From positions 1 through 41,623 of the forward strand of contig JAEWMV010000154.1 in the NCBI GenBank assembly GCA_023393045.1: DNA of 41,623 bases, in the 5' to 3' direction. The position numbers and the translations under genes were made by a program. Shown piece by piece: positions 1 through 15,946 of this stretch (its first letter is position 1; the number at the start of each line of letters is the position of its first letter). The notes below the pieces were generated by a model. That model had not been told where the DNA came from. It made no database searches and saw nothing but the letters and a program-made list of their open reading frames with translations. This DNA is from Bacillota bacterium. GTDB lineage: Bacteria > Bacillota > Clostridia > Christensenellales > CAG-138.

Positions 1-424
1 GCACGGAGGCCGAACAGAAGGAGCGCATTTTCGATATCGCCATCCAGTTCGCGCGCGGTCTGCACTATGCGCATGAGGCAGGGCTTATCCATCAGGACGT
101 GAAGCCGGACAACTTACTGCTGACCAAAGCAGTTCGTCATTCTGCACTTGGTCGTTGGCAAACGGCGGACAGGGTCAGGCATATAGAATCCATTGGAGGT
201 ACAGTTTTCCCGGCTTCACAGACTGGAATGAGGATGCAAGGCCATACCTTGAGATGTTCCTCGCATTGCACCCGGACTGGAGGGACGTCGAGTTTAACGC
301 ACTGATAACCGAACTGCAAAATCGTGGCTTCGGATATATCCGTCCCGAGGGCGTACGAAACAAGCTGATGGAAATGCAACCAAAGAAAAAGAGCCGCAGC
401 GGTTTATTCGGCAAAAGGATCTGA
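1..424 (+). pseudogene. Remnant of a third Ser/Thr kinase paralog. Kinase subdomain VIb is joined out of frame to the C-terminal tail module. The 5' end is off-window.
   Basis: Frame 3 reads ...[36 protein letters not shown], matching both full kinases. It then runs into unrelated sequence and stops at 305. Frame 2 (open 77-424) ends ...[74 protein letters not shown], colinear with the last 73 aa of ORF 439-3519. The DFG motif, TPR region and propeller region are absent. Confidence 0.6.
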
Positions 425-438
425 GGGGAGGAACGTTT
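206..438 (+). repeat. Copy 1 of the duplicated tail-plus-junction segment (tail coding region, stop, RBS of the next kinase gene)
   Basis: Aligns by eye along its whole length with 3301-3533. Both begin tttcccggcttcacagactgg and end ttattcggcaaaaggatctgaggggag, followed by the next gene's ATG. Confidence 0.8.
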
Positions 439-3400
439 ATGACAAGCGAGGATAAAACTGTGTTCGATCCCGGTGTTGCCGTGTCCGATGGCAGCACAAC
501 CCTGCTTGACGCCGTCCTTTCCGATGCAGTAGCGCAAGGCGAGATTCCAGTCCCGACCGGCAATGCCGCCATTGTCAAGGGAGCGGCAATACTCGACACC
601 TACACCGTGGAAACCGACGCGATTGAGGGCGGTATGGGAAGCGTCTGGCGAGTCCATCACAAGGGCTGGAACGTAGACCTTGCCATGAAGCGCCCGCAGC
701 CTCAGTGCTTCTCCACCGATAAGAGCAAGGCAGATTTCATCCATGAGTGCGAGGCTTGGATAAACCTCGGCCTGCACCCGAATATCGTCTCCTGCTACTA
801 TGTCCGCGAGATCAGCGGCACTCCGACGATTTTCTCCGAATGGATGGACGGCGGAAGCCTTGGCGACGCGATAAAGAGTGGTGTTATTTATGAGAGCAAA
901 GAATCGGTGAGTACAGAGCGTATGCTCGATATAGCGATACAGTTTGCACGTGGCCTTCATTATGCGCATGAGGCTGGTCTCATTCATCAGGATGTTAAGC
1001 CGGATAATCTGCTGCTGACAAAAAACGGCGAAGCAAAAGTTGCGGACTTCGGCCTGGCAAAAGCGCGCGCTATTCTGACCGTCTTGGAGAACGACTCTGC
1101 AGCAGAGACTTCCAACAGCGGAAAAACTATCGTCTCACCTTCCGGCGGATATACCCCCGCTTACTGCTCTATAGAGCAGATGGACGGCAAGGAACTCACA
1201 CGAAGAACAGATATTTATTCATGGGCGGTCAGCGTTATGGAGCATTGTATCGGTTCCAGGCCGTGGGCTAATGGCGTTGTTGCAGGGTTGGGCTGCCGCG
1301 GTTACTTCGAAGATACGCGTATACCCATGCCGGAGGAGTTGCGAAAGTTGTTGGAGCGGTGTATGAGCGCCGAGCCTGACGACCGCCCGCACGACTTTGC
1401 GGATATTGAGGCAAAACTGCAAGAGATCTATCAGCTCGAAACCGGGAACTCATATCCGCGCCCCGAACCGAAGGCGGCGGCAGATACGGCGGAATCATTG
1501 AATAATATGGCGTTGTCCTATATGGATCTGGGACGCCCCGAAGAAGCGACTCGGCTTTGGGAGCAGGCGTTCACAGTCGACCCAGGCCACGTTGAAGCGA
1601 TATACAATCACACGCTTTATTCATGGCGCGCCGGGAAAATAATCGATGTTGAAGCGTTGAAAAGGATGCGCATCGCGCAAAGCGGTAATGCTTGTCAATA
1701 CGCGCAAGCGTTGCTGCACCTTGAACGCGGCGCCGGAGACGAGGCTATCGAGGCTTTGTCCGGGAGCAACAGAGATGCCGAAGTCACCGCTGTTGTTGAA
1801 GAAGCGCGTAAGGTCGGGCAGCCCGCCCTGCTTCAGACCCTTACCGGAAGCACATTGGCTCCGTTCAAGTATGACTATCCAACCGATAAAGGCGCACATA
1901 CGGTAAGCTTCAGCGATGACGGAACATATCTGTATGCAAGGGATCGTGCGAAGACAAAGGAGGACAGGTTCACATATCATAACGGGCATGTAAACCTGTG
2001 GAAGCGTACAAATGAAGGCTTTGTGCAGATACGTACGTCCGATCTGGAGCTCGGGCAGGTCAAGTGGAATATGCACATCTCTCTGAGAACAAAACTGAAT
2101 AAGCTGAAATATGGCATATCGGTCGCAAGCCCCGTTGTGAGAAACGGAGCATGGTATGTTCAGGATGAAATTGGACGCGTCCGTTATTCGCACGTATGGA
2201 GAGTTCCCGAAGACCGTGAATACCTCAGTATTGATACGTCGGCGTCGTTGAATAGACTCGCGTGCGGATGCGATATGAACACTGTTGATGTTTACACCCC
2301 GCCGCGGTTTGAGTACAAAGCCGCGTGGATGCTGTGCAAAGTGCGAGCACAAAACGAAGCGGTTGAAAGCGACGAGCTCTTCCGTGAATTGGCAGAGGAA
2401 GCCGCCCTCGCACTTGATAAGCGTGAAATCCAGACAGCCGCAGAATGCATCGCCGCCCTGCGTCCTTTACTTAATGCCGAGAATCAACATGAATACAGGC
2501 TTCTTAATGCCAGACTCGGAAAATACTGCGTGCCCAGCTCCCTGTTGACAATCTATCCGGATCCTCTTTGGGAGGCTCCGCCTCAGTCGCGATATGGGTT
2601 TTGCTCGGACGATCGGTTTGGCATCAACAGTTTTGATTGCTTTATGGATCGAGACAGCAACAAAATGCTGTGGAGCGATCCTCAGCGCTCCAAGATCCCG
2701 GAAGCGGTGCTCTCTCCAGATCAAAAAACCGTTGCATACAAAGCTGTGCAGGGCGGTAAATCCGCTGTTCAGCTCCGCAGTATCCTGACCAAAGATGTGA
2801 TATTCACTTATAAGCCAAATGAAAATGTTGGCTCTCTGCAGTTTCTTCCTGACGGGAGCGCAATCCTCGTAGCGCTTTGCGAGTCCATCAGCGCAGTCCT
2901 GATTGATTCTCGAAACGGAAAAGCGCTGCGGCATTACAAGGGAAGAAAGCCGCACATAACAGTTGATGTTTTCGTGCAAGTGAGTCCGAACGGAACGAGG
3001 TTTGCTTACGGCAGGATTGGAGATTCAAAGAGCGGCATGGGGGTTACTCATGAACCGCTGAGGTTTGCACGCATCAACGGAGATAAAGTGCTCGATACGA
3101 CAGAAACGTTGTCAACGTATTACGATTACATACGTGACGCACGGTTCTCACCGTATGATAGATGGTTTATGACTAAGCATTTTGACGGCTCTGTTCGCGT
3201 TTGGGATATTGAAAGGGGCGGAAATGACGTACAACGGTTTGACACAGAAGAAGACCTCATCACACTGATTAGCCGCGGGCATCTGGACTGGTGCTACGAG
3301 TTTCCCGGCTTCACAGACTGGGACGAGAACGCGAGGCCATATCTTGAGATATTCCTCGCGCTGCACCCGGACTGGAACGACGTCAACTTTGGTGAACTGA

Positions 3401-3519
3401 TAAACGAGCTTCAAAATCGTGGCCTTGGCTTTATTCGACCCGAGGGCGTGCGGTCGAAGCTGATGGAGATGCAGCCCAAGAAGAAAGGCCGCAGCGGCTT
3501 ATTCGGCAAAAGGATCTGA
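439..3519 (+). CDS. Hanks-type Ser/Thr protein kinase (non-RD, HQD) with a TPR-like linker, a WD40-like beta-propeller region and a 73-aa C-terminal tail. Cytosolic.
   Basis: GGGGAGG lies 8 nt upstream of the ATG. Kinase motifs: [19 protein letters not shown] (985-1008), VADFGLAKA, DIYSWAVSV. TPR-like: SLNNMALSYMDLGRPEEATRLWEQAF. WD40-like strands: HTVSFSDDGTYLYA, LSPDQKTVAYK, LQFLPDGSAILVA, VSPNGTRFAYG, FDGSVRVWDI. No long hydrophobic segment and no PASTA-like repeats. Confidence 0.85.
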   Translation: MTSEDKTVFDPGVAVSDGSTTLLDAVLSDAVAQGEIPVPTGNAAIVKGAAILDTYTVETDAIEGGMGSVWRVHHKGWNVDLAMKRPQPQCFSTDKSKADFIHECEAWINLGLHPNIVSCYYVREISGTPTIFSEWMDGGSLGDAIKSGVIYESKESVSTERMLDIAIQFARGLHYAHEAGLIHQDVKPDNLLLTKNGEAKVADFGLAKARAILTVLENDSAAETSNSGKTIVSPSGGYTPAYCSIEQMDGKELTRRTDIYSWAVSVMEHCIGSRPWANGVVAGLGCRGYFEDTRIPMPEELRKLLERCMSAEPDDRPHDFADIEAKLQEIYQLETGNSYPRPEPKAAADTAESLNNMALSYMDLGRPEEATRLWEQAFTVDPGHVEAIYNHTLYSWRAGKIIDVEALKRMRIAQSGNACQYAQALLHLERGAGDEAIEALSGSNRDAEVTAVVEEARKVGQPALLQTLTGSTLAPFKYDYPTDKGAHTVSFSDDGTYLYARDRAKTKEDRFTYHNGHVNLWKRTNEGFVQIRTSDLELGQVKWNMHISLRTKLNKLKYGISVASPVVRNGAWYVQDEIGRVRYSHVWRVPEDREYLSIDTSASLNRLACGCDMNTVDVYTPPRFEYKAAWMLCKVRAQNEAVESDELFRELAEEAALALDKREIQTAAECIAALRPLLNAENQHEYRLLNARLGKYCVPSSLLTIYPDPLWEAPPQSRYGFCSDDRFGINSFDCFMDRDSNKMLWSDPQRSKIPEAVLSPDQKTVAYKAVQGGKSAVQLRSILTKDVIFTYKPNENVGSLQFLPDGSAILVALCESISAVLIDSRNGKALRHYKGRKPHITVDVFVQVSPNGTRFAYGRIGDSKSGMGVTHEPLRFARINGDKVLDTTETLSTYYDYIRDARFSPYDRWFMTKHFDGSVRVWDIERGGNDVQRFDTEEDLITLISRGHLDWCYEFPGFTDWDENARPYLEIFLALHPDWNDVNFGELINELQNRGLGFIRPEGVRSKLMEMQPKKKGRSGLFGKRI

Positions 3520-3533
3520 GGGGAGAATTGAGC
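3301..3533 (+). repeat. Copy 2 of the duplicated tail-plus-junction segment
   Basis: See 206-438. Same order of tail codons, TGA, GGGGAG RBS and next ATG. Confidence 0.8.
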
Positions 3534-6500
3534 ATGGCAAACGAGGACAAGACAGCATTCGACCCCGGCGCAACTGTGCCGGAGAGTATCTCTACCGTGC
3601 CTGACGGCGGCACGACGCTGCTTGATGGTGGCGCGCCGATCAGCGGCAGCATTGCGCCCGCCTCTCGCGTAATACGAAAGGGCGATACGCTGCTCGATAT
3701 CTACCGTGTGGAGATCGATGCTATCGAGAGCGGCGGCATGGGGCAGGTATGGCGCGTCCATCACACGGGCTGGGATGTCGATCTTGCCATGAAGCGGCCG
3801 CGCGCCGAGCATTTCGCCAGCGAAGCGGACAAGGAAGTGTTCACACGAGAGTGCGACGCGTGGATCAATCTTGGTCTGCACCCCAATATCGTATCCTGTT
3901 ATTATGTGCGCCGCATAGACGACATTCCTACCATATTCTCTGAGTGGATGGATGGCGGCAGCTTGGCGGACGCTATCAACGGCGGCGGTCTCTACCGTGC
4001 AAACGACGACACAGCCAGGCAGGAGCGCATCCTGGATATCGCCATCCAGTTTGCGCGCGGGCTGCATTACGCGCATGAAATGGGGCTTATCCATCAGGAT
4101 GTGAAGCCGGATAACGTGCTGCTCACGAATGGCGGCGAGGCCAAGGTAGCAGACTTCGGTATTTCAAAGGCGCGCGCCGTGCTGACCGTGTTGGACGGGA
4201 AGGAGACGGCCGCAGCCGGACGCACAATACTGTCCCCGTCAGGTGGTTTTACCCCCGCCTATTGCTCCATAGAGCAGATGGACGGCAAGGAACTGACGCG
4301 AAGAACGGATATCTACTCATGGGCGGTCTCGGTCATGGAAATGTACACGGGTTCGCGCTTATGGGCGAACGGCGTAGTGGCGGGTCTTAGCTGCCGCGTG
4401 TATTTTGAACAGACGCGCATACCGATGCCGGAGGCTCTCAAAGAGCTGCTGGCCCAGTGTATGGATGCCGAGCCAGGAAACCGTCCCCATGATTTTGCGG
4501 AGGTCGAAGCAAGACTGCATGAGATATATAAGGCCGAAACGGGCACGGACTACCCCCGCCCCGCGCCTAAAGCAGCCGTTGATACGGCGGATTCGCTGAA
4601 CAATCGGGCGTTGAGTATGCTGGACTTGGGGAAACTCGATGAAGCAGAAGCTATTTTGGGCGATGCGCTGGCTAAAGACGCCACCGCGCCCGATGTGGTG
4701 TTCAATCATGCGCAGCTTGCTTGGCTTCGCGGGCGAACGGATGATTCCGCCGCTTTACGCGCGCTGAACAGTATTGCGATAGAACGGGAAAGGAACGCTT
4801 GCTTAGCGCGTCTTCGGACGGTTATTGGCCCGACGGATGCCCGTGAGTCTGATCGGAGTATAGATAGAGATAAAATAGCCAGAGTCATATACGATCAAAA
4901 GAACGAAAGGCTGCTGTACTGTGCTTCCCGGGCAGCGGTCAACAACAAACACAGGTATGCGCTGAATGTACTTGGCGGAGGTAGCGACCGGCGCTTCGAG
5001 CTGTACGATCAGCACGAACCACATAGATTGACATTGAGCGTGGACCACAAATGGGTATGCCTGCCCTATGACGACAGAATTGCTTTGTGTGATGTGGAAA
5101 ATGGGGAGTATCGTGAAATAGCCCGTGTGAGAACGGCGTCTGCCATTGCCGCTCTTAACGGTGATGGTGTGTACCTTGGCAAAGAGGACGGCGTATACCA
5201 TTATGAGATCTCCACCGCTCGAACCAGCCTCATCAGCTATTCCCCCACAGTTTGTCGTAACATCACGCAGAGCGGCGATGGAAAACTTTTGGCATGGCGC
5301 ATAGAGCAGAATAAACAGTGGTCTGTGCGCGTGTTCGATATGGATTCGCGTACTTTCCTGTTCTCGCGGGAAAGGACGGGCGAACCGTATGATATTGAGT
5401 TCAGTGATGATAATGATTACTTATTCGTTGGGGACAACGACGGCTTCTTTTCCGTATACAGCATACCAACCGGCGATACCTTGCTCCATATGAACAGCGG
5501 GCAGCGGTTTATCAGTATATGTGCAGTGCCGGGTGGGCGCTATGTGCTCACCGGTCACAGCGGCGGGTTTCGTCTGTGGGATATCGAGCATCGTATCTGC
5601 CGCCGCACCTATACCATAAACTGGGACAAAACTGTCTATCCCTACCCGACAAGAGGCGAGGACGGCGTTTTGCGTATTGGCACTGTCACAAGAGACGGCG
5701 TTTATTCTGAGTATGACCTACCCGATCAGGAAGTTCGTCCCGTATGGGAAATATGCGTCGTTACCAGCGCTGTGGTACAGCTTTCCCGCGACGAACTGTT
5801 CCGCAACGCCATATCCGATGCGGAAGCGGCTTTTGGTAAAGGAGAGTACATAGCCGCGCTCAGCGGGCTTAAAGAGGCGCGGGCCATTTCGGGATATGCC
5901 ACGGATGAGCGCTGCCTTTCACTGTACGAAAAGATTGCGCCTCACTTCCGGCTTTGCGGCCAGCCGCAGCTTGTGTCGCTGCGCCGCCTCCCAAGGGCTG
6001 ATGAAGTCAGCCTGTCCCATAATGGAAGCTATATCATGGATGAGGAAACGCATGAGGTCTATGAAAGGCTTAGCGGAGAATGCTTGCTTGCCAAGGATAA
6101 AATGCTCAATTATAAGCATACCGCTCTCATTTATGGCGACAGGCTCGCTTGTATCTACAAGACCGGCGAAAAGGAAGAACTCACAGCGGATATATTCCAG
6201 CTTCCCGGCGGTGAACGGGTATTCACAGGATGCCTTTGTACAGGCTCCGGCGCGAACGACATTACCCCATCCATACTCGCTTGGCCGGATTGCGAGTTGT
6301 TCACAGTACGTTTTCCGGGGTTCAGTTTTACCCGCAACGTCACCGTTGACAGCGTGTCATGCACACCCATGCGTCCTTTCATAGTGCAGTGGGAGTTCAA
6401 AAGTGAGGCCGACCAACTGACAGGGAGCGGTCTCATAGCTGGCATGCACGACATACGGCATATCTCAAACGGGAAAAGAACGGTCAAGTACACACCTGTA

Positions 6501-6953
6501 CCGGGCATGGATAAGAAGGTGTCAAAGCTTGCCAGATATCAAGTGACCGCCGATATGAAGACCGGGCTGGTTGGCGCGATCAAGGAACACCACTCCTTTT
6601 ACAGCATCAAGCCCGAGCTTCAGAAAGAACTGGATTCGTATGACGGCTGTCTGTTCCTATACTCGGCAAAGACGGGCAAGTTTATCAAGATGGTAAAGTT
6701 ATCCGCCGCCAATATCCATGTCCATCACGGTGGGTATTTCACCTGCGAGGGCGACGATGGCGTACTTTTATACCGTATTGCCGACTTTCTCGACACCGAC
6801 GAACCGAAGCCCGTGTTCATTCCGGTTCGGAATAGAATGTCCACTGTCAGTTTCAGCGCGGATATGCTGTACATGGCGATCGCCGTACCGCGTAACGCAC
6901 CCGCAGATGCAGGAGATACAGAAGTATTCTTGCTCGACTGGGAGCTGCAATAG
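3534..6953 (+). CDS. Paralogous non-RD Ser/Thr protein kinase with TPR-like and WD40-like regions. Lacks the C-terminal tail module.
   Basis: I prefer ATG 3534 (MANEDKTAF, parallel to MTSEDKTVF of the first kinase) over TTG 3528. Kinase motifs: [19 protein letters not shown] (4092-4115), VADFGISKA, DIYSWAVSV. WD40-like strands: LTLSVDHKWVCLPYDD, WSVRVFDMDS, IEFSDDNDYLFVGDNDGFFSVYSI, GHSGGFRLWDIEH. Ends ...FLLDWELQ*. Confidence 0.85.
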   Translation: MANEDKTAFDPGATVPESISTVPDGGTTLLDGGAPISGSIAPASRVIRKGDTLLDIYRVEIDAIESGGMGQVWRVHHTGWDVDLAMKRPRAEHFASEADKEVFTRECDAWINLGLHPNIVSCYYVRRIDDIPTIFSEWMDGGSLADAINGGGLYRANDDTARQERILDIAIQFARGLHYAHEMGLIHQDVKPDNVLLTNGGEAKVADFGISKARAVLTVLDGKETAAAGRTILSPSGGFTPAYCSIEQMDGKELTRRTDIYSWAVSVMEMYTGSRLWANGVVAGLSCRVYFEQTRIPMPEALKELLAQCMDAEPGNRPHDFAEVEARLHEIYKAETGTDYPRPAPKAAVDTADSLNNRALSMLDLGKLDEAEAILGDALAKDATAPDVVFNHAQLAWLRGRTDDSAALRALNSIAIERERNACLARLRTVIGPTDARESDRSIDRDKIARVIYDQKNERLLYCASRAAVNNKHRYALNVLGGGSDRRFELYDQHEPHRLTLSVDHKWVCLPYDDRIALCDVENGEYREIARVRTASAIAALNGDGVYLGKEDGVYHYEISTARTSLISYSPTVCRNITQSGDGKLLAWRIEQNKQWSVRVFDMDSRTFLFSRERTGEPYDIEFSDDNDYLFVGDNDGFFSVYSIPTGDTLLHMNSGQRFISICAVPGGRYVLTGHSGGFRLWDIEHRICRRTYTINWDKTVYPYPTRGEDGVLRIGTVTRDGVYSEYDLPDQEVRPVWEICVVTSAVVQLSRDELFRNAISDAEAAFGKGEYIAALSGLKEARAISGYATDERCLSLYEKIAPHFRLCGQPQLVSLRRLPRADEVSLSHNGSYIMDEETHEVYERLSGECLLAKDKMLNYKHTALIYGDRLACIYKTGEKEELTADIFQLPGGERVFTGCLCTGSGANDITPSILAWPDCELFTVRFPGFSFTRNVTVDSVSCTPMRPFIVQWEFKSEADQLTGSGLIAGMHDIRHISNGKRTVKYTPVPGMDKKVSKLARYQVTADMKTGLVGAIKEHHSFYSIKPELQKELDSYDGCLFLYSAKTGKFIKMVKLSAANIHVHHGGYFTCEGDDGVLLYRIADFLDTDEPKPVFIPVRNRMSTVSFSADMLYMAIAVPRNAPADAGDTEVFLLDWELQ

Positions 6954-6991
6954 TTCTCCGCGTTAAGCCATATTGTTAAGGAGGCAAAAAG

Positions 6992-9900
6992 ATGGACCTT
7001 TCCACATCCATGAAATTCGTAATGATGCGCGCGCAGTCAGAGGCCGCCGCAGCAAAGAAAAGTGAGGTCTCGCCGGAGCTGCTGTTTCTCGGTATATTGA
7101 AGCTTGCCGAAAAACGGGCCGAGGAGTTTGCGCCCACCTCGCGCCATAAGGCCGAGACCAACGCAGACATTGACGCAGTGAGGCAACAGTTTGCGCAGAA
7201 AAGCATCGATTCATCGCGTACACGAGGGTTGCTTCGCGCTGTCATTGCGGGTGGAGCCCACTTGGGCGGCGAGAAAGAACTGACGGAATGTCTGGTGCGG
7301 TCCGCGGATTTGGCGGGTAAGCGTGGCGAATCCGATCTCTGGGCACAGGATGTTCTCGCGGCGATTCTTGCCTGTCCCTCCGATGCGATATTGCAGGTTT
7401 GCCCGCTGAAAAAACAGGGCGCAGACAAGGCGGAAGACGCAAAGGACGAGCCGACGGGCGAAGCGAATGGGGCCGGAGAAAAGACCGACGAGATGAGCCG
7501 GGATTTCCTTCCCGCGCTGACAAGCCGTATCCGGCATATGCGCGCCAAACTGCTTTCCACCGTCCATGGTCAGGATCATGTGGTGCATGCCTTCACAGAG
7601 GGCATGTTTGCCGCAGAGGTCTTGGCCGCATCCGACGAGAAGCGCAAGCGGCCGCGCGCCATATTCGTGTTTGCGGGGCCTCCGGGCGTAGGCAAAACCT
7701 TCCTCGCCGAGCAGGCGGCGGAAGCGCTCGATATCCCCTTCAAGCGCTTCGATATGTCGAGTTTTTCTGACCATCAGTCCTACATGAGCCTCATTGGCTT
7801 TGAAAAGAGCTATCAGGGCGCAAAGCCGGGCACACTGACCGGCTTTGTCAAGAAGCAGCCCCACAGCATTTTGCTCTTTGACGAGATCGAGAAGGCGCAT
7901 TTGAACACGATACATTTATTTTTGCAGATCCTCGACGCGGGCAGGCTTGCCGACCGCTTTATGGATGAGGACATCTCTTTTAAGGACACCATCATCATAT
8001 TTACCAGCAATGCGGGGCGCTCGCTTTATGAGGGCGACGCCAGGCAGAACGCTGCGGGCGTACCGCGCAAGACGTTGATCAATGCGCTTGAGACTGAAAA
8101 GAACCCCCAGACCGGCCAGCCTTTCTTCCCCGCCGCCATCACCAGCCGTATGGCCACAGGATGGCCGCTGCTGTTCAACCATCTGCAGGCGCATCATCTT
8201 GATAAAATAAGCGGCGGTGAGCTTTCCCGCTTCTGTCAGCTTTTCGAGAAACAATACGGCATCGAGGCGGGCTTTGATGAGCTCGTTCCCACGGCACTGC
8301 TGTTTCAAGAGGGCGGCGCCGCAGATGCGCGCACGCTGCGCGCTCAAACCGAGCTGTTCTTCAAAAATGAGGTATTCAAGGTGTGCCGGCTCTGGGGGGA
8401 GGACAGGTTCTCCACCGCTCTTTCCGGCATAGAAAAGCTGCGTTTCACCGTAGAAACGGCCAAGCTCGCACAGGATGTACGCCCACTGTTCTTTTCGGAT
8501 GAGAAACCGGAGCTGCTTCTTTACGGCAGCCCGACATTTGCCGCGCGCTGCCGTGAAGAGCTGCCGGGGTATCTTATCTATGATACCCAGAGCGTAGAGG
8601 AAGCACTGACCATCGCCGGGGAAAAGGACGTCCGCGTCGTGTTGCTGGACGTCGCGGAGCGGAGCGTGCAGGACGCTGATGCGGGCTTTGTCACAATGGA
8701 GACTGTTTACGAAGGAGCACAGGAGCTTGTCATGTCAGCCGGAGCCTTCGACTTTGCACCCATGGCCGCGGGGGCGATCCACGATGGCAGCAGATTGTTC
8801 CGCTCGCTCAGGGAACGTCTGCCGGAGCTGCCTGTATATCTCTTGGAAACCGAGGAGTTCTCCATCGACGCCGAGCTGCTCATGAGTTTCGTCCGCGCGG
8901 GCGCGCGCGGCAAGCTGAAGGAGCCTGACGAGGATTTCTCCGTATTCGAGGATCAGCTTACCGCCATCTGCCGGGAGCTTTATATGCAGGGCGTCGCGGC
9001 TAAGATGGCCTCGGAGCGAAAGGTGCTGTACTTCGAGACCGCCCCCAAGCTCAGCCGGGACGGCAAGGAGATCATTGTGCGCCTGCGCGATTTCTCCCTG
9101 AAACGCGCCACCGAAGCCGACGACTCAAGCAGCGTGCTCGACGATGTGGAAAAGCCCAATATCCACTTTACGGATGTGATCGGCGCGGCGGACGCGAAGG
9201 AAGAATTAAAGTTTTTCATCGACTACCTGAAAAATCCAAAGAAGTTTTCCGCGCAGGGCCTAAAACCGCCTAAGGGCGTGCTTCTCTATGGTCCGCCGGG
9301 TACAGGAAAGACTATGCTTGCCAAAGCGATGGCCGGCGAAAGCGATGTTGCCTTCATCCCCGCCGTCGCAAGTGCGTTTGTCACCAAATGGCAGGGCAGC
9401 GGCCCAGAGGCTGTGCGGGAACTGTTCAAAAGGGCTCGCCGCTACGCTCCGGCCATCCTGTTCATCGACGAAATAGACGCAGTAGGCAGAAAGCGCGGTC
9501 AATCGAACACCTCTCATGGAGAGGAAATGGCATTGAACGCCCTTTTGACAGAGATGGATGGCTTCTCGGTCGACCCAAAGCGCCCTGTATTCGTGCTTGC
9601 CGCCACCAACTTCGATGTTGAAGAGGGTCAGGGCGGCATGGGCGTCATTGACCCGGCGCTTGCGCGGCGTTTTGACCGAAAGATACTGGTCGATTTGCCC
9701 AACGCCGACGAGCGGGAGCAGTTTGTGCGGCTGTATCTGAAAAAGAACAAGACGCATACCGTGACCGAGGAAATGATAAAACGACTTGCCTCACGCGCAA
9801 TTGGCATGAGCCCGGCGAACCTCGCCTCCGTGTTCGAACTCGCCAACCGAATGGCGGTCAAAGCCCAGAAACCTTTGGACGATGCGATACTGGACGAGGC

Positions 9901-10468
9901 CTACGAGCTCACTAAGCATGGCGCGAAAAAGGAATGGGGCTACGAATATCTTGAGCGCGTTGCCAGGCACGAAAGCGGACACGCTTTCCTCTGCTACCTC
10001 GGCGGCAATACGCCATCCTATCTCACCATTGTGGCGCGTGGCGGTCATGGCGGCTATATGGAGCACTCCGCAAAGGATATGGGGCCTCTATCCACCAAGG
10101 AAGAGCTGTTGAACCGTATCCGCACGAGTCTTGGGGGACGCGCGGCTGAACTCGCCTACTACGGCGAGAAGGACGGCGTATCCACCGGCGCGTCCGGAGA
10201 TCTTGAACAAGCCACCCGTGTGGCGCAGGCTATGATCTGTAATTACGGCATGGACGAGGATTTTGGCCTCGGCGTCATGGGGCAACAGGAGGCCGCAAAC
10301 AGCCCGGAGGTCAAAAAGCGTATCAACGAGATACTCGGCGAAGAGATGCGCAACACTGTGGAACTCATTAAGACCAACAAACATCGCATCGATCGCATGG
10401 TGGACGCGCTCATGAAGAAGAACAAGCTCTCCGGCGAGGAAATGGAGGAGCTGCTAAGGGATGATTAA
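6992..10468 (+). CDS. Single-chain fusion of a Clp_N double repeat, a ClpA/B-D2-like AAA+ module, a receiver-like middle segment and an FtsH-like AAA+ module with an M41 zinc metalloprotease. No transmembrane anchor.
   Basis: AAGGAGG RBS.
- N-terminus: two Clp_N-like repeats (VSPELLFLGILKLAE; LWAQDVLAAILACP).
- D2-like module: HGQDHVVHAF, Walker A GPPGVGKT (7676-7699), DMSSFSDHQSYMSLIGFEKSYQG, Walker B ILLFDEIEKAH, LQILDAGRL, IIIFTSN.
- FtsH-like module: Walker A GPPGTGKT (9290-9313), pore loop KWQG, ILFIDEIDAVGRKRG, ATNF...IDPALARRFDR.
- Protease: HEXXH = HESGH (9968-9982), GGRAAELAYYG, GASGDLEQATRVAQ.
- No hydrophobic N-terminal helices. Confidence 0.85.
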   Translation: MDLSTSMKFVMMRAQSEAAAAKKSEVSPELLFLGILKLAEKRAEEFAPTSRHKAETNADIDAVRQQFAQKSIDSSRTRGLLRAVIAGGAHLGGEKELTECLVRSADLAGKRGESDLWAQDVLAAILACPSDAILQVCPLKKQGADKAEDAKDEPTGEANGAGEKTDEMSRDFLPALTSRIRHMRAKLLSTVHGQDHVVHAFTEGMFAAEVLAASDEKRKRPRAIFVFAGPPGVGKTFLAEQAAEALDIPFKRFDMSSFSDHQSYMSLIGFEKSYQGAKPGTLTGFVKKQPHSILLFDEIEKAHLNTIHLFLQILDAGRLADRFMDEDISFKDTIIIFTSNAGRSLYEGDARQNAAGVPRKTLINALETEKNPQTGQPFFPAAITSRMATGWPLLFNHLQAHHLDKISGGELSRFCQLFEKQYGIEAGFDELVPTALLFQEGGAADARTLRAQTELFFKNEVFKVCRLWGEDRFSTALSGIEKLRFTVETAKLAQDVRPLFFSDEKPELLLYGSPTFAARCREELPGYLIYDTQSVEEALTIAGEKDVRVVLLDVAERSVQDADAGFVTMETVYEGAQELVMSAGAFDFAPMAAGAIHDGSRLFRSLRERLPELPVYLLETEEFSIDAELLMSFVRAGARGKLKEPDEDFSVFEDQLTAICRELYMQGVAAKMASERKVLYFETAPKLSRDGKEIIVRLRDFSLKRATEADDSSSVLDDVEKPNIHFTDVIGAADAKEELKFFIDYLKNPKKFSAQGLKPPKGVLLYGPPGTGKTMLAKAMAGESDVAFIPAVASAFVTKWQGSGPEAVRELFKRARRYAPAILFIDEIDAVGRKRGQSNTSHGEEMALNALLTEMDGFSVDPKRPVFVLAATNFDVEEGQGGMGVIDPALARRFDRKILVDLPNADEREQFVRLYLKKNKTHTVTEEMIKRLASRAIGMSPANLASVFELANRMAVKAQKPLDDAILDEAYELTKHGAKKEWGYEYLERVARHESGHAFLCYLGGNTPSYLTIVARGGHGGYMEHSAKDMGPLSTKEELLNRIRTSLGGRAAELAYYGEKDGVSTGASGDLEQATRVAQAMICNYGMDEDFGLGVMGQQEAANSPEVKKRINEILGEEMRNTVELIKTNKHRIDRMVDALMKKNKLSGEEMEELLRDD

Positions 10469-10544
10469 GCTGCAACTTTAGCGGTAAGCGCGGCTGCGGA
10501 GATGTAGTACCATCCATGTATAGAGTACATAAGGAGGAACGAGT

Positions 10545-11510
10545 ATGAAACGGATATCAGCGGTATTACTCATCATCACGCTTATCGCTGCACTGACCGC
10601 CTGCACCAAGGCGCCAGCCGCAGGCAAAGAAGGATCGCCTTATCAAAATGTGCCGGCTTTATCGGCGGGCGACGATTTCAAGCTGGGGGATGAGACCTAT
10701 GCTCTTGAAAAATGGGTAACCTTGCCGGAGTATGACACGGATACCAAGATCGGCTATGGCCTTTGCTTCGTGCAAAAGGAGGGGATTGCGCCCATCGCTA
10801 TATCCGGCAGCAATTACACGAGCCTCATTGACATGAAGCTGGACATGGACGACGGCACTCTTGCCACCAGCAATATCAGCTTTATCGCTGTGGACGATGC
10901 GCCGGGCTATGCCGCCCGAGTGACATTTGAATTCGCCCTGCCCAAAGCTGCGGCTTTGCCTGAGAGCGGAACGATCTTCCACACGGGAGCGGACAAGGAG
11001 GAAAGAATAGATCTCTCCGCATTGGAGACCCCGGCGGGAGCGCCGTCGGCACCGCAGGAACAGTCTCAGCCCGCGGTAATGCCCGCTGACGATTATGAGG
11101 CCAAGAAACTGGCCGGCGAATGGTTGCTCACCGCCATCACCTTCCGTACCCCGGAGACGGATAACGGCATATTCAGCATGGATGCCACCATGGAAATATC
11201 CGAGGGCTTTGAATATGGACGAAACCTATCACTTCGAAACGATATGACTTTGATTGGTCTCATCGACCTGTCCGCGCTGATCGACGCTGTGAACGAGCTG
11301 CCCTTCAGCGTCACCGACCTCGATTTTAAGGACTACTCCGGCTGGGAGTATACAAACGGAGTCGTAACGCTCACTAAAAGCGGCCCCGAGCTCGCGGCGA
11401 GCTATGATGAAGCAAGCGAAGAATTGCGCCTTACCTGGAGCGGAACGGTACAGATCGATCCGGCCGGCGAGGTGTTGATGGATATAACAATGGTCTTCAA
11501 GGCCAAATAA
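10545..11510 (+). CDS. Lipoprotein of unknown function
   Basis: AAGGAGG RBS. Signal peptide with lipobox MKRISAVLLIITLIAALTAC. I recognise no catalytic motif. Confidence 0.7.
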   Translation: MKRISAVLLIITLIAALTACTKAPAAGKEGSPYQNVPALSAGDDFKLGDETYALEKWVTLPEYDTDTKIGYGLCFVQKEGIAPIAISGSNYTSLIDMKLDMDDGTLATSNISFIAVDDAPGYAARVTFEFALPKAAALPESGTIFHTGADKEERIDLSALETPAGAPSAPQEQSQPAVMPADDYEAKKLAGEWLLTAITFRTPETDNGIFSMDATMEISEGFEYGRNLSLRNDMTLIGLIDLSALIDAVNELPFSVTDLDFKDYSGWEYTNGVVTLTKSGPELAASYDEASEELRLTWSGTVQIDPAGEVLMDITMVFKAK

Positions 11511-11528
11511 TTTATGGAGGGAAACAAA

Positions 11529-13409
11529 ATGAAACGGATACTTGCAGCATTGCTGATCGTCGCGCTGGTCGCTTCGTTGGCTGCTTGCGCGGCAAAGCCC
11601 ACTGCGCCGCCGGAGTCCGAACCTACGCCCGAGTCAATCGTCGAGTTCAACGACCCCCTGCTGGAGGAGCTTGTTCGCAAGGCTATGAACAAGCCGGACG
11701 GCGATATCACACTTGCCGAGGCGGAGGCGGTCACGGAGCTGGAGCTCGGCATCGACTGGCAGCAGGAACCGGCTCCGAACTCGCAGATCAAGGACATTTC
11801 CGGCTTGGAGAATTTCAAAAACCTCGAAAACCTTAATCTGAATTTCCACGCAATAGAGGACATATCGCCGCTCTCCGGGCTTACTAAGCTCCGCTCCCTG
11901 TCGCTGGGCGGAAATCCGGTAGCCGATATAGCGCCGCTTTCGAACCTCACCGGGCTTGGTTCTCTGACGCTGTTCAACTGTCAGGCGAAGGACTATACCC
12001 CGCTTTCAAAGCTGAGCGGCCTGGGTATGCTGCTGCTGGAGTATTCAACGATAAGCGATGTGAGTATGCTCTCCGGGCTTACGGAGCTTTGGTGGCTTAG
12101 CCTTGCAACCACGCAGGTAAGCGACGTCTCCCCCCTGTCGACACTCGTTAATCTCAGGCAGTTGCAGTTAGCGGGATGCCCTATCACCGATTACTCGCCT
12201 CTGGCCGAGATATACCCGAATCTTGAAGAAAAAGACTTCGAGATACCTTCCAAGCTGATGGACATATTCAGCGCCGAGTTCAATCCTTATGGCATGGACA
12301 GTCCGGCGACCGTGTTTGAGGCGTCCTTCAACAAGAGTCCGGACAACGCTCAGTTCGTGCTCTCCATGACAGGCAGCGGGAATATGTACGCCTGCGTAGC
12401 CTATCAGGCGGACGCTGCGGGGCTCTCCGAGGAGGAGAAGCAAGAGCGCATCAATGAATACCTTGAGGGCGGCTTCTGCCAGATCCGCGGCACAGACGGC
12501 CGCGTCGTGGATATCAAACGGGCTATACCCGAGGATGACCGCTACGAGTATGTGGAGGCGGACGGTCAGCACGGGCAGAACGGAGCGGGCTGCGTTATCG
12601 ACGTTACATATTTCATAGACGATGCCAACATCGAGAGGTACACTCAACTCGTGCGGGACAATTACAGCGTGGACGCGCTTGCGCCCATTGCAGATTTCTT
12701 TGATACGAATACCGATTTTGCTGAGTGTGGCATAACTGTAAACGTCTATAAGGATGAAGCCCATGCCTATGTCGTTTATCGTCTACCCGACGTAAACGCT
12801 GTGATGCAGGAAATGCAGGGAGGCGGCGATGCTCCGTGGTGGGAGTGGAACGGTATGACGCAGACAGCCATGATGTATGACGGCGTGGACAGCAAGCTGA
12901 CCTTCGACACCGAGGGCGGAGCCATAACCGTCGATCAGCTTCACGCAGAGCTCAGCGCACAGCCCGCCGCCGAGGGCTCGCTTAGCGCTATGGGTTTCGG
13001 CTTTGATGATGCGGGCGTATGCGGCGTATACGAGGATCGCATGCCGCACTATAAGTCCGTCGCAATAGCAAGACCGGAATGGGGCGAACACCCCGACGGC
13101 TGGAACATCGAGTTCATGGACACCGATATTAAGGGTTACAGCCTGCGTATCGAGTATCACGCCGAAGACGGCAGGTATCATATATCGCTGGATAAAGACG
13201 GCGAGAGCTGCTCCTATGACTACTATCGCGAAAAGGATCAATACGGCTGGGAACACCCCGACATTGAGACCGTGCACAGGATGTTCGGGGACGCCTTTGA
13301 TTCTGAGGGCAAAGAGCTGTATTACCCCGCGCTTGCGCACTTTGAGCAGTTTGTACAGGAGCACTTCGGCATGAGCGTTGACGAGCTGTACGCGGCTCCG
13401 AAGCAATAA
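11529..13409 (+). CDS. Leucine-rich-repeat (internalin-like) lipoprotein with an unknown C-terminal domain
   Basis: I prefer ATG 11529 (GGAGGG 7 nt upstream) over 11514. Lipobox MKRILAALLIVALVASLAAC. About 22-aa LRR units run across ~11790-12215 (LENLNLNFHAIEDISPLSGLTKLRSLSLGGNPVADIAPLSNLTGLGSLTL...VSDVSPLSTLVNLRQLQLAGCPITDYSPL). Confidence 0.75.
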   Translation: MKRILAALLIVALVASLAACAAKPTAPPESEPTPESIVEFNDPLLEELVRKAMNKPDGDITLAEAEAVTELELGIDWQQEPAPNSQIKDISGLENFKNLENLNLNFHAIEDISPLSGLTKLRSLSLGGNPVADIAPLSNLTGLGSLTLFNCQAKDYTPLSKLSGLGMLLLEYSTISDVSMLSGLTELWWLSLATTQVSDVSPLSTLVNLRQLQLAGCPITDYSPLAEIYPNLEEKDFEIPSKLMDIFSAEFNPYGMDSPATVFEASFNKSPDNAQFVLSMTGSGNMYACVAYQADAAGLSEEEKQERINEYLEGGFCQIRGTDGRVVDIKRAIPEDDRYEYVEADGQHGQNGAGCVIDVTYFIDDANIERYTQLVRDNYSVDALAPIADFFDTNTDFAECGITVNVYKDEAHAYVVYRLPDVNAVMQEMQGGGDAPWWEWNGMTQTAMMYDGVDSKLTFDTEGGAITVDQLHAELSAQPAAEGSLSAMGFGFDDAGVCGVYEDRMPHYKSVAIARPEWGEHPDGWNIEFMDTDIKGYSLRIEYHAEDGRYHISLDKDGESCSYDYYREKDQYGWEHPDIETVHRMFGDAFDSEGKELYYPALAHFEQFVQEHFGMSVDELYAAPKQ

Positions 13410-13435
13410 GCACCAAGCACTGCAACTTTCTCCGG

Positions 13436-13502
13436 AAACGCTCGCTTCATCGCGTGTTACGCTGTGAATATAAAGCAACCACGTTGTGTTGCGAGCGTTT
13501 TT
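13436..13502 (+). terminator. Possible terminator or structured element: 10-bp stem enclosing a 45-nt loop with sub-hairpins, then a T-run
   Basis: aaacgctcgc (13436-13445) pairs with gcgagcgttt (13491-13500), followed by tt. The loop contains gcgt-gtt-acgc and caac-cac-gttg mini-stems. The loop is atypically long for a terminator. Confidence 0.3.
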
Positions 13503-13515
13503 GGAGGTGCTTTGG

Positions 13516-14397
13516 ATGATATACATTACTGGCGACACCCACGCGGATTTTTCAAGGCTGTATCGGGTTCCATTCTCTCACGTCGAGGAGTGGGAGCAAG
13601 GTACAGATCCGCATTATGTGATTATTTGCGGCGATTTTGGCGGTGTGTGGAACGAAAGCATGCAGCAGGCCGCAGAACTCGACAAGCTGAACGACAGGCC
13701 GTTTACCATATTGTTTTTAGATGGCAATCATGAGAACTATGATCTGCTTGCCACCTATCCTGTGGAGAACTGGCACGGCGGCAAGGTACAGGCAATACGT
13801 AAGAACGTGCTGCATCTCATGCGGGGACAGATATACGAGATCGAAGGGCAGACGTTCTTCATCATGGGCGGCGCGGCCTGCCATGACACTTATAACGGCG
13901 TGCTGGATATGGACGATCCTGAATTCACGCAAAAGTACCAACGCCTCAAAAACGCGCGCAAGTTCTTTCGTATCAATCATCTAAGCTGGTGGGAGCAGGA
14001 ACTTCCCACCGAGAGCGAGATCAGCGCGGCATATGAAACGCTCTGCGCATACGGAAAAAAGGTGGATTATGTGCTCAGCCACTGCGCGCCAAGTAAAATG
14101 CAAAGGCGAATCCAAGCCAGGATCGGCGACAGTACCCATCCAAAGAACGCGCTGACAGAGTTCCTGCAATGGGTGTACAACGAGTGTGAATTCAAGCACT
14201 GGTACTGCGGGCATTATCATCAACCAAGGGATATAACGCGCTGCTTTCATGTGGTATATGAGAACATTGTACGGTTGGATGGTGATATGCAAGCTTCCGA
14301 CGATGAAGTTGAGTCAAGAAATGAGGACTTTCTTGATAGGATAAGGGCGTTACTCTCACAGAACAGTAAAACCACTGGTGGTAACTGCCGATTATAG
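13516..14397 (+). CDS. Calcineurin-like metallophosphoesterase (possible protein phosphatase)
   Basis: I prefer ATG 13516 (GGAGG at 13503-13507) over GTG 13486. Metallophosphatase motifs appear in order: ITGDTHAD, ICGDFGG, LDGNHENY, GGAACHD, SHCAP, GHYH. Confidence 0.8.
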   Translation: MIYITGDTHADFSRLYRVPFSHVEEWEQGTDPHYVIICGDFGGVWNESMQQAAELDKLNDRPFTILFLDGNHENYDLLATYPVENWHGGKVQAIRKNVLHLMRGQIYEIEGQTFFIMGGAACHDTYNGVLDMDDPEFTQKYQRLKNARKFFRINHLSWWEQELPTESEISAAYETLCAYGKKVDYVLSHCAPSKMQRRIQARIGDSTHPKNALTEFLQWVYNECEFKHWYCGHYHQPRDITRCFHVVYENIVRLDGDMQASDDEVESRNEDFLDRIRALLSQNSKTTGGNCRL

Positions 14398-14429
14398 TCG
14401 ACAATCTGAAGCAGACAAGGAGGATGACC

Positions 14430-15380
14430 ATGAAAGACAAACTGAATAATGGCATCCTTTATGTCGGCCAAACCTCTGATACTACAGCTGCTGACAGGAA
14501 CGCTTCCGGTGAGGATCCTAACCGGAAGCGATATATCCAGTTACGGCGAATCGAATCAGAGCCACCGTTTGATGTATTTAAGGTTAGGGATACCTTGAGC
14601 GGAAGTTATGCCACCATGATGTGTCTGGACGGCAAAAGCAAACACGATAATGACGCAAAGATGCGCTTGCATAAGCGAGGCATCAACAGCGTTTATGCAG
14701 CTAATAGTGATAAGATATCGCAAAACATCGTCCAATGGAATACTCCAACACGCCATGGTCATGATGCTCTATTCCTTTTGACCGAGCAACCGTATGGTCG
14801 AAGTCTGTCAAAATGGCATAAACTGCATCCGATTTCGGACGAGGCCACGGCGTTGCTTCTCATTGGTCAACTGTTGAATGCTCTTGACGCAGTACACTCC
14901 GTTGGAATGCTAATTACTGAGAAGAATCCATCAGAAACAGAACAGCGTACATCGCTGGTGCATCGTTCGGTAGGGCCAGACAGCATTCGAATCGTTGAGT
15001 GCGACGACAAGCTTACTTTACTATTAGATAACTTCGAGAATGCAATTCCGGTTCAGACACCTGCTGACAATCAGTTTTGTGGAACTGCCGCATTTTCACC
15101 ACGGCAGCAGCTTCTCGATGCTCGACATCCTCACCCTGCATGGGATGTATGGGCGGCCGCTGCATGCCTATACTATCTCCTCACGGGCAAATTTCCGCGA
15201 GAGTTTTCGGAAAACCGATGGAAATGCTTGGCGGAGAACAAACCTATTCCTTTGCTTGAACGACGCTCTGACATATCGCCAAGACTTGCAGCAGTGATCG
15301 ATCTCGCGCTGGATGACACGAATGGTTTGCATTATCAAACAGCCGACGCTCTTCGAAAAGCACTGCATTCAGTAATGTGA
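14430..15380 (+). CDS. Protein-kinase-fold protein with degenerate catalytic motifs (predicted pseudokinase)
   Basis: AAGGAGG abuts ATG 14424, so ATG 14430 is the better-spaced start. Kinase-like C-lobe: LVHRSVGPDSIRI (14961-) in place of HRDxKPxN, LLDNFENA in place of DFG, FCGTAAFSPRQ, DVWAAAACLYYLLTGKFP. There is no glycine-rich loop (ESEPPFDVF) and no beta3 lysine (YATMMCL). Confidence 0.7.
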   Translation: MKDKLNNGILYVGQTSDTTAADRNASGEDPNRKRYIQLRRIESEPPFDVFKVRDTLSGSYATMMCLDGKSKHDNDAKMRLHKRGINSVYAANSDKISQNIVQWNTPTRHGHDALFLLTEQPYGRSLSKWHKLHPISDEATALLLIGQLLNALDAVHSVGMLITEKNPSETEQRTSLVHRSVGPDSIRIVECDDKLTLLLDNFENAIPVQTPADNQFCGTAAFSPRQQLLDARHPHPAWDVWAAAACLYYLLTGKFPREFSENRWKCLAENKPIPLLERRSDISPRLAAVIDLALDDTNGLHYQTADALRKALHSVM

Positions 15381-15410
15381 ATCGCGACAAACTAATATCA
15401 ATCTTTGGTT

Positions 15411-15451
15411 GGTGTAGCAGTAAATCAGACTGCTGCACCTTCGTTGTTTTT
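15411..15451 (+). terminator. Rho-independent terminator after the pseudokinase gene
   Basis: ggtgtagcag / ctgctgcacc forms a stem (one mismatch) with a 9-nt loop, followed by ttcgttgttttt. Confidence 0.7.
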
Positions 15452-15873
15452 ACCATGGCTCAAAAGTGTAATTAGTGTCAACTGCACAACGACAATAAAC
15501 GCGCAAAAGAGCAAAACCGGCCAAGGTGAGCGCTCAACGAAAGACGAATCTCCGCCCACAGACGCGCTGACGAAAAATAGACAAAAAGAAGCTTAAGCCT
15601 CTTTCGGAGATTCATGGTCAGAACGACCAAGCGCACGGCAGAGCCCTCTCTTTCCTCCGATGGTCAGCGGCTATCCATCTGGCCGGCAACCAGATCCATG
15701 AGCACATAAATACGGATGGCATCCGTATGCGCGATGATCCATCGGGGGGACAATGATACTTCCGTAAACCGCGGCCCGGCCACAGTGAAGGCGGGGGGAT
15801 GAGATTTCCATGGACCTGCCAGCCACAGGCGGAGGGCAGCTGCATTTCTAATTCTCTTGAGTAATCTATTCTG

Positions 15874-15913
15874 TTGCTTTCCAGTGCCGTTTGGTGTGTA
15901 ATATATATACACA
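15874..15913 (+). promoter_or_regulatory. Putative xis/int promoter overlapping a palindrome (possible operator)
   Basis: TTGCTT (15874-15879), 17-nt spacer, TGTAAT (15897-15902). Overlaps the palindrome tgtgta-atatata-tacaca (15895-15913), 34 nt upstream of the xis ATG. Confidence 0.35.
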
Positions 15914-15946
15914 GTCCTGCGGATTACTGGAGTTAGGAGGTGCAAA

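Follow-up and report, generated by a model that had tools for sequence, protein, structure and literature searches.

A conserved cluster of giant sensor kinases and a single-chain Clp_N/AAA+/M41 protease, a candidate kinase-gated proteolysis system on a bacterial integrative island

A co-directional block of kinase and protease genes

The window, i.e., the whole stretch of DNA that we analysed, comprises 41,623 nucleotides of a Bacillota bacterium of the Christensenellales (assembly GCA_023393045.1, contig JAEWMV010000154.1). Its first 15 kb carry genes for two giant cytosolic Ser/Thr kinases (K1 and K2) followed by the gene of a soluble AAA+ metalloprotease, hereafter PROT (Table 1). We found that this association recurs in bacteria of different orders and phyla and that kinase and protease are fused in a single polypeptide in a number of relatives. 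On balance, we favour the view that the cluster encodes a kinase-gated AAA+ protease system, in which the destruction of proteins would be under the control of a signal.

The original prediction, made from the sequence of positions 1 to 13409, described five open reading frames (ORFs) on the + strand, separated by short gaps and preceded by GGAGG-type ribosome-binding sites. The ORF calls agree: the gaps are of 14 nt (K1-K2), 38 nt (K2-PROT), 76 nt (PROT-ORF4) and 18 nt (ORF4-ORF5), and a GGAGG-like site lies before each of the five genes. The extent of the block was underestimated, since it continues on the same strand past 13409, through the genes of a metallophosphoesterase and of a degenerate kinase (K3), up to 15380. 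There it is closed by a strong hairpin resembling an intrinsic terminator, and no + strand terminator of comparable strength was found within 439-15380. An excisionase-like gene, a tyrosine integrase gene and a tRNA-Arg gene follow, and the GC content, which is ~0.47-0.57 over positions 1-18000 of the window, rises to ~0.60 where housekeeping genes begin. Because of this right end and of the rise in GC content, we assign the whole block to the cargo of an integrative island, whose left part (with the left end and any att repeat) lies outside the window. The block is best explained as two-thirds, on the 3' side, of a larger cluster that is conserved and travels with this island.

Table 1. Features of the kinase-protease block and of the right end of the island. 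Domain boundaries in the remarks are in residues (aa) of PROT.
Feature	Position	Strand	Evidence and remarks
K0, decayed giant kinase copy with an internal deletion	1..430	+	catalytic loop in frame 3, C-terminal tail like that of K1 in frame 2; truncated at the window edge
K1, cytosolic Hanks-type Ser/Thr kinase, 1026 aa	439..3519	+	Pkinase E 3.5e-31, TPR_2, ANAPC4_WD40 27.9 bits
K2, paralogous giant kinase, 1139 aa	3534..6953	+	Pkinase E 2e-31, Beta-prop_THOC3 E 3e-9
PROT, soluble single-chain Clp_N / ClpB-D2-like AAA+ / receiver-like / FtsH-type AAA+ / M41 zinc protease, 1158 aa	6992..10468	+	Pfam, NCBIfam
PROT N-domain, divergent Clp_N double repeat	6992..7411	+	aa 1-140; AF2 and Foldseek
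PROT first AAA+ module, Clp/Hsp100 D2 type	7523..8311	+	aa ~178-440; AAA_2 E 2e-33; matches ClpA 446-622, ClpB 554-748
PROT receiver-like (CheY-fold) domain	8429..9016	+	aa ~480-675; disordered insert at 561-594
PROT FtsH-type AAA+ and M41, no membrane anchor	9143..10468	+	aa ~718-1158; TIGR01241 FtsH_fam E 4e-104
U (ORF4), lipoprotein, 321 aa	10545..11510	+	signal peptide MKRISAVLLIITLIAALTAC, lipobox LTAC
LRR lipoprotein (ORF5), 626 aa	11529..13409	+	signal peptide MKRILAALLIVALVASLAAC, lipobox LAAC; LRR_4 E 5e-19
Metallophosphoesterase (calcineurin-like fold)	13516..14397	+	Metallophos E 1e-8; phrog_1649 (phage protein family) E 5e-42
K3, degenerate FHA-kinase-family paralogue, 318 aa	14424..15380	+	Pkinase 29.5 bits, below cutoff; clusters with FHA-kinases
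Intrinsic-terminator-like hairpin, strong, ends the block	15411..15439	+	11-bp stem plus T run
pemK RNA motif (Rfam RF02913)	15750-15813	+	69 bits, gathering score 34.8
Excisionase-like HTH	15947-16141	+	phrog_66
Tyrosine integrase	16162-17553	+	phrog_1
tRNA-Arg(CCT)	17749-17825	-	right end of the integrative island

A soluble protease that combines Clp and FtsH modules

The prediction that one gene encodes Clp_N, two AAA+ modules and an intact M41 protease holds. In addition to AAA_2, Pfam profiles match the AAA (E 4e-49) and Peptidase_M41 (E 2e-28) parts of the protein, the latter with the motif HESGH. Among 46 homologues, the Walker A and B motifs of both AAA+ modules, HE[SA]GH and GASGD are invariant, and the aromatic residues of the pore loops are conserved in both modules. 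To judge from these motifs, PROT looks like a competent processive unfoldase-protease. Its assignment to family M41 is clear (100 bits for a cutoff of 29.9), and in structural comparisons with Foldseek its C-terminal half superposes on the cytosolic regions of FtsH proteins (TMt ~0.72). Over its last 440 residues the protein shares the AAA+ and M41 fold of FtsH, including every catalytic residue and a pore-loop aromatic, but it is not an FtsH orthologue: it scores 349.5 bits vs 600 with TIGR01241, over residues 718-1150 only, it lacks a transmembrane segment and a periplasmic domain, and it has in addition the Clp_N, Clp-D2-type and receiver-like parts. Nor is it a class I Clp/Hsp100 protein, as it has a D2-type module only (149 bits vs 993 for ClpA, 121 vs 1232 for ClpB).

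The N-domain required a closer look because it is marginal by Pfam (E 0.038), precomputed PF02861 matches being present in 13 of 120 homologues. A family profile of the domain matches only Clp N-domains in the PDB (E 0.0026 for the N-terminal domain of ClpC). Since Foldseek with the full-length model returned FtsH matches only and was silent on this region, residues 1-140 were modelled separately with AF2 (pLDDT 97.1). All 50 PDB matches listed for this model are domains of the ClpC, ClpB, ClpA, ClpC1, ClpD or ClpC2 type, with TM scores of 0.6-0.7 for most and alignments of 134-152 columns; those with ClpC2 concern the homologous C-terminal domain, not the N-domain. On this structural evidence, the domain belongs to the Clp/Hsp100 N-domains, which are defined by two four-helix repeats in a pseudo-dimeric fold. 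Profile support, which might have failed for Clp_N or M41, is therefore clear for the latter and, for the former, marginal by Pfam but backed by structure.

Between the two motor modules lies a domain that matches only response-regulator receivers, albeit weakly (E 0.007-1.3; D553 aligns with D54 of ArcA), and that shows a (beta-alpha)5 pattern in the AF2 model. The residues of the phosphate pocket are frequent among the homologues (D553 in 41, T/S620 in 43 and K641 in 36 of 46), but the acidic pair of receivers is absent from the family and replaced by [YF]-G-[ST]-P. No histidine kinase is encoded in the cluster. The domain is best called a pseudo-receiver. We also considered a conserved T-x-x-E/D site in its insert, but such a site occurs in two subclades (TVYE, TRDE) and is not universal. 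For the field of AAA+ proteins, the layout is of mechanistic interest: a Clp_N domain and a Clp-D2 ring sit on an FtsH ring, and a pseudo-receiver separates the two motors.

Giant kinases with conserved heads and variable sensors

K1 and K2 score above the gathering threshold of Pkinase and have the HxD catalytic loop and ADFG, which makes them Hanks-type kinases. Their catalytic loop reads HQD, as in non-RD kinases, and H[QR]D is found in every member of the family that has the region; both appear to be active non-RD kinases. K1 starts with a tail that contains three TxxD motifs, followed by the kinase domain, a TPR linker and a C-terminal sensor region resembling a beta-propeller. No transmembrane segment was found in either protein. 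The matches to TPR and beta-propeller/WD40-type profiles are modest in K1 and K2, with stronger WD40 matches in homologues, and they uphold the earlier description of cytosolic kinases with TPR/WD40-like tails. The kinase domains of K1 and K2 are 72% identical and their C-terminal sensors are unrelated, except for the TPR linker of ~70 residues.

The same contrast holds across the family. The product of identity and coverage has a median of 63% for kinase domains, and it is below 10% in 73% of pairs of C-terminal sensor regions, even among paralogues of one locus. Because the kinase domains are conserved while the C-terminal regions are essentially unrelated, this is the pattern of diversifying sensors. 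Paralogues also decay. A degraded third kinase copy had been noted upstream of K1, and blastn confirms two pieces of it (K0): nucleotides 19-127 are 84% identical to the catalytic-loop region of K2 (4021-4129), and nucleotides 206-430 are 83% identical to the 3' end of K1 and the intergenic region behind it (3301-3525). The two pieces are in different frames.

The N-terminal tails of the giant kinases are disordered and rich in TxxD. In the tails of the window and of related loci (L005-L050), we counted 103 motifs in 2530 residues, against 29 +/- 5 in shuffled sequences (3.5-fold); in the C-terminal regions of these kinases, the frequency is 0.33 motifs per 100 residues. There are 0 to 8 motifs per kinase (three each in K1 and K2), TxxE also occurs, and the first motif of the arrays is mostly a conserved dkT[VI][FL]D right at the N-terminus (439-600 and 3534-3700 in the window). 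The phosphorylated form, pT-x-x-D, is the classical ligand of FHA domains (Rad53 FHA1).

Synteny and gene fusions link the kinases to the protease

To place the block among its relatives, 47 genomic loci and eight metagenomic contigs (two of them redundant copies) were fetched, their ORFs called and the proteins clustered; the counts below refer to the 44 non-redundant loci with a full-length protease, unless stated otherwise. Full-length homologues of PROT number more than 100, with identities of 63-92%, and bear annotations no more specific than AAA ATPase or FtsH. In 26 of the 44 loci, a gene for a giant K1/K2-family kinase is found on the same strand, no more than two genes from that of the protease; an FHA-(Zn-ribbon)-kinase occurs in 18 and a PP2C phosphatase in 17. 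The usual order is an HTH protein, the FHA-kinase, PP2C, one to three giant kinases, the protease and a variable tail, among whose genes are those of lipoproteins, a metallophosphoesterase, a DUF2225-like protein, HEAT-repeat proteins and a tandem (pseudo)kinase in one locus or another. The number of kinases per locus, from one to five, indicates an expansion of paralogues. This organisation spans many lineages of Clostridia as well as Victivallales/Victivallaceae (L050, L025), and independent metagenome contigs (L001, L003, L053, L054) show the same order with Pfam-labelled genes. In the closest locus (L001, protease 92% identical), a membrane protein with a Clp_N-like domain, an FHA-kinase and PP2C precede the giant kinases. 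A conserved kinase/protease neighbourhood thus exists in other genomes, across orders and phyla. Genomes encode only a handful of Hanks kinases, and their adjacency to the protease is therefore not a matter of chance.

Stronger evidence of a link comes from fusions. A HMMER search with the middle region of PROT, which is specific to the family, retrieved only 238 relatives among 1.84 billion representative proteins. Twenty of the best 150 of these 238 exceed 1400 residues, and in 14 of these 20 an N-terminal kinase of the K1/K2 family is fused to AAA_2-receiver-AAA-M41. The catalytic loop and DFG are intact in 8 of the 14 fusions, and several contain the characteristic TPR linker. Two of the fusions were confirmed as single ORFs on their contigs, with unrelated genes on either side, i.e., as stand-alone units. 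In the fused proteins, the kinase-sensor takes the place that Clp_N holds in the unfused protease, which suggests that Clp_N serves to dock the kinases rather than to read marks on substrates.

Conserved synteny and recurrent fusions together make the functional coupling of kinases and protease well supported. The original prediction had cast them as writer and executioner of one system, and this pairing now rests on synteny and, more firmly than the prediction had envisaged, on the fusions. The genes could conversely be independent cargo that came to lie side by side by chance on a mobile island, and the lipoproteins encoded downstream do look unrelated to cytosolic signalling. This is very improbable, given a gene order kept in 26 of 44 loci of different orders and phyla, the repeated fusion of kinase and protease in one polypeptide, the short intergenic gaps and the lack of a terminator before 15411.

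Two further observations concern the composition of these neighbourhoods. A protein of ~490 residues recurs in kinase-type clusters (L012:18049-19527, L005, L015, L023, L024, L047 and the first gene of L001). Its N-domain is homologous to the Clp_N-like domain of PROT (hhalign 96.8%) and is followed by about eight transmembrane helices, predicted by eye; it may be a membrane-anchored partner with the same docking domain. In the PVC group, four loci (L030-L033, in Lentisphaeria, Opitutaceae and Kiritimatiellota) encode protease homologues at 50-52% identity that have no kinase neighbours, and represent a fourth type of context; L031 and L033 carry an Hsp70-like protein of 863-868 residues, and L031-L033 have a large unannotated protein family in common.

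A model of kinase-gated proteolysis and its alternatives

We propose that K1 and K2 act as cytosolic sensors, with conserved heads and hypervariable TPR/beta-propeller tails. Upon sensing, they would phosphorylate the TxxD arrays of their own N-terminal tails; in complete loci, the FHA-kinase would dock on the phosphorylated motifs and the PP2C phosphatase would reset the switch. The kinases would bind PROT, probably through Clp_N, because fused relatives place the kinase-sensor exactly there. In Clp ATPases, adaptors dock on the N-domain, and in ClpC both adaptors and phospho-ligands exert their action there (PMC12583610). Association with a kinase would then switch on the double-ring unfoldase-protease and lead to the processive degradation of target proteins. 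The family connects sensor kinases of the eukaryote-like type, a reader (FHA) and an eraser (PP2C) with a dedicated, soluble single-chain double-AAA+ metalloprotease, a link supported by synteny and by fusions. If the coupling works as we propose, a kinase-based module for signalling or defence would gain a concrete effector, and the fusions would represent its minimal, single-protein version, amenable to direct tests.

Phosphorylation-directed proteolysis in bacteria is well established mainly for phospho-arginine (pArg), with the McsB-ClpC-ClpP system of Bacillus and mycobacteria: in Bacillus, the ClpC N-domain is the receptor for the marks that the McsB kinase writes and that target proteins to ClpCP. 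By analogy, the original prediction suggested that the kinases mark substrates, that Clp_N and/or the receiver-like domain reads the phospho-mark, and that marked proteins are unfolded and degraded. In both cases a kinase activity is linked to an AAA+ unfoldase with Clp_N that supplies a protease; the Clp_N fold of PROT is genuine, D553, T620 and K641 of the phosphate pocket are retained in its receiver-like domain, and the disordered, phosphorylatable TxxD arrays of the kinase tails would be good degrons. Two glutamates form the pArg pocket of the ClpC N-domain, E32 and E106 (PMC12583610). The equivalent of the first (E29) is a glutamate in 35 of 46 homologues. However, the equivalent (position 120) of E106, which forms the pArg1 site that matters most for activating ClpC, is not conserved (D in 22 and M in 14 of the 46). 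The kinases are Hanks-type, expected to yield pSer or pThr, and not guanidino-type arginine kinases such as McsB: none of the fetched loci showed an McsB-like gene, and the kinases of the window and of related loci have the Pkinase fold. The proteins differ as well, since here unfoldase and protease form one chain, the protease is M41 and not ClpP, and the Clp module is of the D2 type only. A pArg-style reading by the Clp_N of PROT is thus unlikely. As complete versions of the system have a dedicated phospho-Thr reader (FHA) and eraser (PP2C), and as Clp_N is replaced by the kinase-sensor in fusions, which fits the docking of a partner better than an indispensable reader of marks, we regard the marking of substrates for destruction as improbable.

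As for the biological role of the kinase-gated protease, we favour a response to stress or conflict (defence against phages or mobile elements) that is related to the Ter/TerY-P network discussed below. A role in defence is plausible: carriage on an island, patchy spread across phyla, turnover of paralogues (K0 decayed, K3 degenerate) and hypervariable sensors point to a conflict system. More specifically, and tentatively, the kinase-protease unit could be a class of innate-immune sensor-effector, in which a hypervariable repeat sensor switches a non-RD kinase (the type found in the pattern-recognition receptor kinases of plants and animals) that licenses the double-ring unfoldase-protease via TxxD/FHA phospho-threonine signalling, the outcome being abortive infection or the destruction of invader proteins. 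It would take two forms, either separate genes whose products dock via Clp_N or a single chain of 1,500-2,100 residues, and it would amount to a prokaryotic degradation pathway controlled by phospho-threonine.

A non-immune role is also conceivable, in which the kinases regulate a stress or quality-control protease that senses envelope, metal or other physiological stress and adjusts the proteome, like mobile protein-quality-control islands. Close homologues of the protease are found within TerD/PRTase_2/ATPgrasp_Ter/HAD clusters, plasmid heat-resistance loci pair FtsH with an AAA+ protein of the ClpK/ClpG type, lipoprotein genes lie behind the protease in at least 10 loci, and housekeeping genes flank related loci. 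On the other hand, it is conflict systems that more typically show hypervariable sensors, several paralogous kinases (here one to five per locus), decay into pseudogenes (K0, K3), a patchy spread across phyla and carriage on an island, and Ter and TerY-P modules have been linked to phage defence (for TerY-P, PMC10542128). We therefore consider such a purely physiological role rather unlikely.

Several observations weigh against the model of a kinase-gated protease or against a role in conflict. The window has neither the FHA-kinase nor the PP2C, as it is truncated at K0, and the full module is deduced from L001. About 40% of the protease homologues have no giant kinase nearby, and the protease can therefore work in other contexts. 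The recurrent secreted lipoproteins behind the protease are not explained by a model in which kinases and protease are cytosolic. The enrichment in TxxD was computed from related sequences, which are not phylogenetically independent. The flanks of related loci, within +/-10 kb largely filled by the cluster itself, contain mostly housekeeping genes and no recognisable defence islands; no relative was found in viral contigs by a pattern-limited scan, and a protein search found no full-length relative in phage or plasmid records. Finally, when the proteins of the block and their conserved neighbours were scanned with PADLOC, they matched at the level of domains only.

Comparison with known systems

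The earlier view that no named system fits the block is confirmed, as PADLOC and NCBIfam matches concern single domains and remain far below equivalog cutoffs, e.g., 105 for MADS6 (cutoff 460) and 132 for IteA (cutoff 510). We found no description of this kinase-protease cluster in the literature that we searched. PD-T4-6, mad6/MADS, Stk2, IetAS and PDC-M37, all listed by PADLOC, were set aside because only kinase or AAA+ domains matched and partner genes were missing. The outputs of Ser/Thr kinase defence genes such as Stk2, PD-T4-6 and TerY-P are poorly understood. The kinase domains studied here match the PADLOC models of PD-T4-6, Stk2 and MADS mad6 with E-values of 1e-30 to 1e-62, and the fused kinase-sensor-protease relatives are likewise stand-alone single genes, but the matches are confined to the kinase domain and none of these systems has an AAA+ protease.

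The nearest known network is that of Ter and TerY-P. As in TerY-P, a Hanks-type kinase and PP2C would form a phospho-switch, and the FHA-kinase carries zinc ribbons. PP2C lies beside kinases in 17 of the 44 related loci, including L001; none is encoded inside the window, which is cut upstream of K0. The differences are the FHA domain, the giant sensor kinases with TPR/beta-propeller tails, and the AAA+/M41 protease, which is a constant partner here and was not found in descriptions of the TerY-P triad. No vWA/TerY match was found among the ORFs of the window or in kinase-type loci. The original prediction had excluded TerY-P for want of the vWA gene, which is correct for the window, but distant homologues of the protease do occur in vWA/PP2C/kinase and TerD clusters. 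At 39-45% identity (L036, L038, L039), their neighbours are a kinase, a PP2C-like protein, YbjN and two vWA proteins, with LRR and Sel1 proteins also present; closer homologues, at 63-66% identity, lie inside TerD/PRTase_2-TRSP/ATPgrasp_Ter/C-C lyase/PELOTA_1/HAD clusters without kinase neighbours (L017, L022, L027, L055). The ter operons have a phage-inhibition phenotype. TerY-P-like modules have been reported as anti-phage systems (PMC10542128). The cluster of the window is best seen as one where the place of vWA is taken by FHA and giant sensor kinases, the AAA+ protease being a constant partner. If kinases and protease are coupled as we propose, this would give a function to part of the Ter/TerY-P network of gut Clostridia and PVC bacteria, which has long been enigmatic. 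In L055, the protease homologue also adjoins an Endonuclease_NS_2 gene and an RHS-repeat toxin gene.

Two other systems combine similar parts. The predicted ternary conflict system of Kaur et al. 2020 combines MoxR and vWA with a protein in which FtsH-type AAA+ domains occur twice, the first copy being inactive, and rare variants of it carry ClpN repeats (PMC7159879). It shares with our cluster the FtsH-type AAA+ modules and components with beta-propeller repeats, but identity is rejected: there is no MoxR or vWA here, the first module is of the Clp-D2 type with intact Walker A and B motifs, and the partners are kinases. Plasmid heat-resistance loci, which gave the best plasmid matches, encode FtsH beside an AAA+ protein of the ClpK/ClpG type on mobile DNA and are in this sense an unfused analogue of the two motors. 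They differ by their context of small heat-shock proteins, the lack of kinases and of a fusion, and an FtsH that is presumably membrane-anchored; with 35-38% identity over the AAA+/M41 parts, they are a generic analogue. In one such plasmid of Paracoccus yeei (L052, NZ_CP020447.2), FtsH is encoded directly beside the ClpK/ClpG-type gene, among genes for small heat-shock proteins, YfdX, a sigma factor and ClpP.

Genes downstream of the protease and the end of the island

Two of the five ORFs of the original prediction, ORF4 (U) and ORF5, encode proteins that start with lipoprotein signal peptides and are therefore secreted, extracytoplasmic lipoproteins, which corrects the prediction. U has no match in Pfam, PADLOC, PDB or PHROG. 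In ORF5, an internalin-like LRR region precedes a domain of ~380 residues without assigned function; its family is found behind PROT in six other fetched loci, two of these being redundant copies. The loci with a lipoprotein gene behind the protease gene (e.g., L001, L005, L006, L013, L018, L026, L029, L035) encode unrelated families (U, LRR and two others), mostly directly after the protease and within three genes of it in L026.

The metallophosphoesterase family is present in 11 loci plus L053 and L054, hence in at least 13 related clusters. Its GDxH / GD / GNHE signature, as in PPP-type protein phosphatases, makes it a possible second phosphatase of the cluster. PDB sequence searches with U and with the metallophosphoesterase gave nothing useful. 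K3, the last gene of the block, lacks the FHA domain and DFG, and has HRS in place of HRD; it stands at the 3' end, whereas the usual position of the FHA-kinase is 5'. It is probably a pseudokinase or a decaying copy.

The pemK RNA motif is located in the 500 non-coding nt that separate the terminator from the excisionase gene; it is upstream of xis/int and not of a gene for a pemK toxin. On the right side of the island, the core genome contains an ordinary purine-catabolism cluster at 24109-29630, with adenine deaminase and the molybdopterin-binding and FAD-binding subunits of xanthine dehydrogenase.

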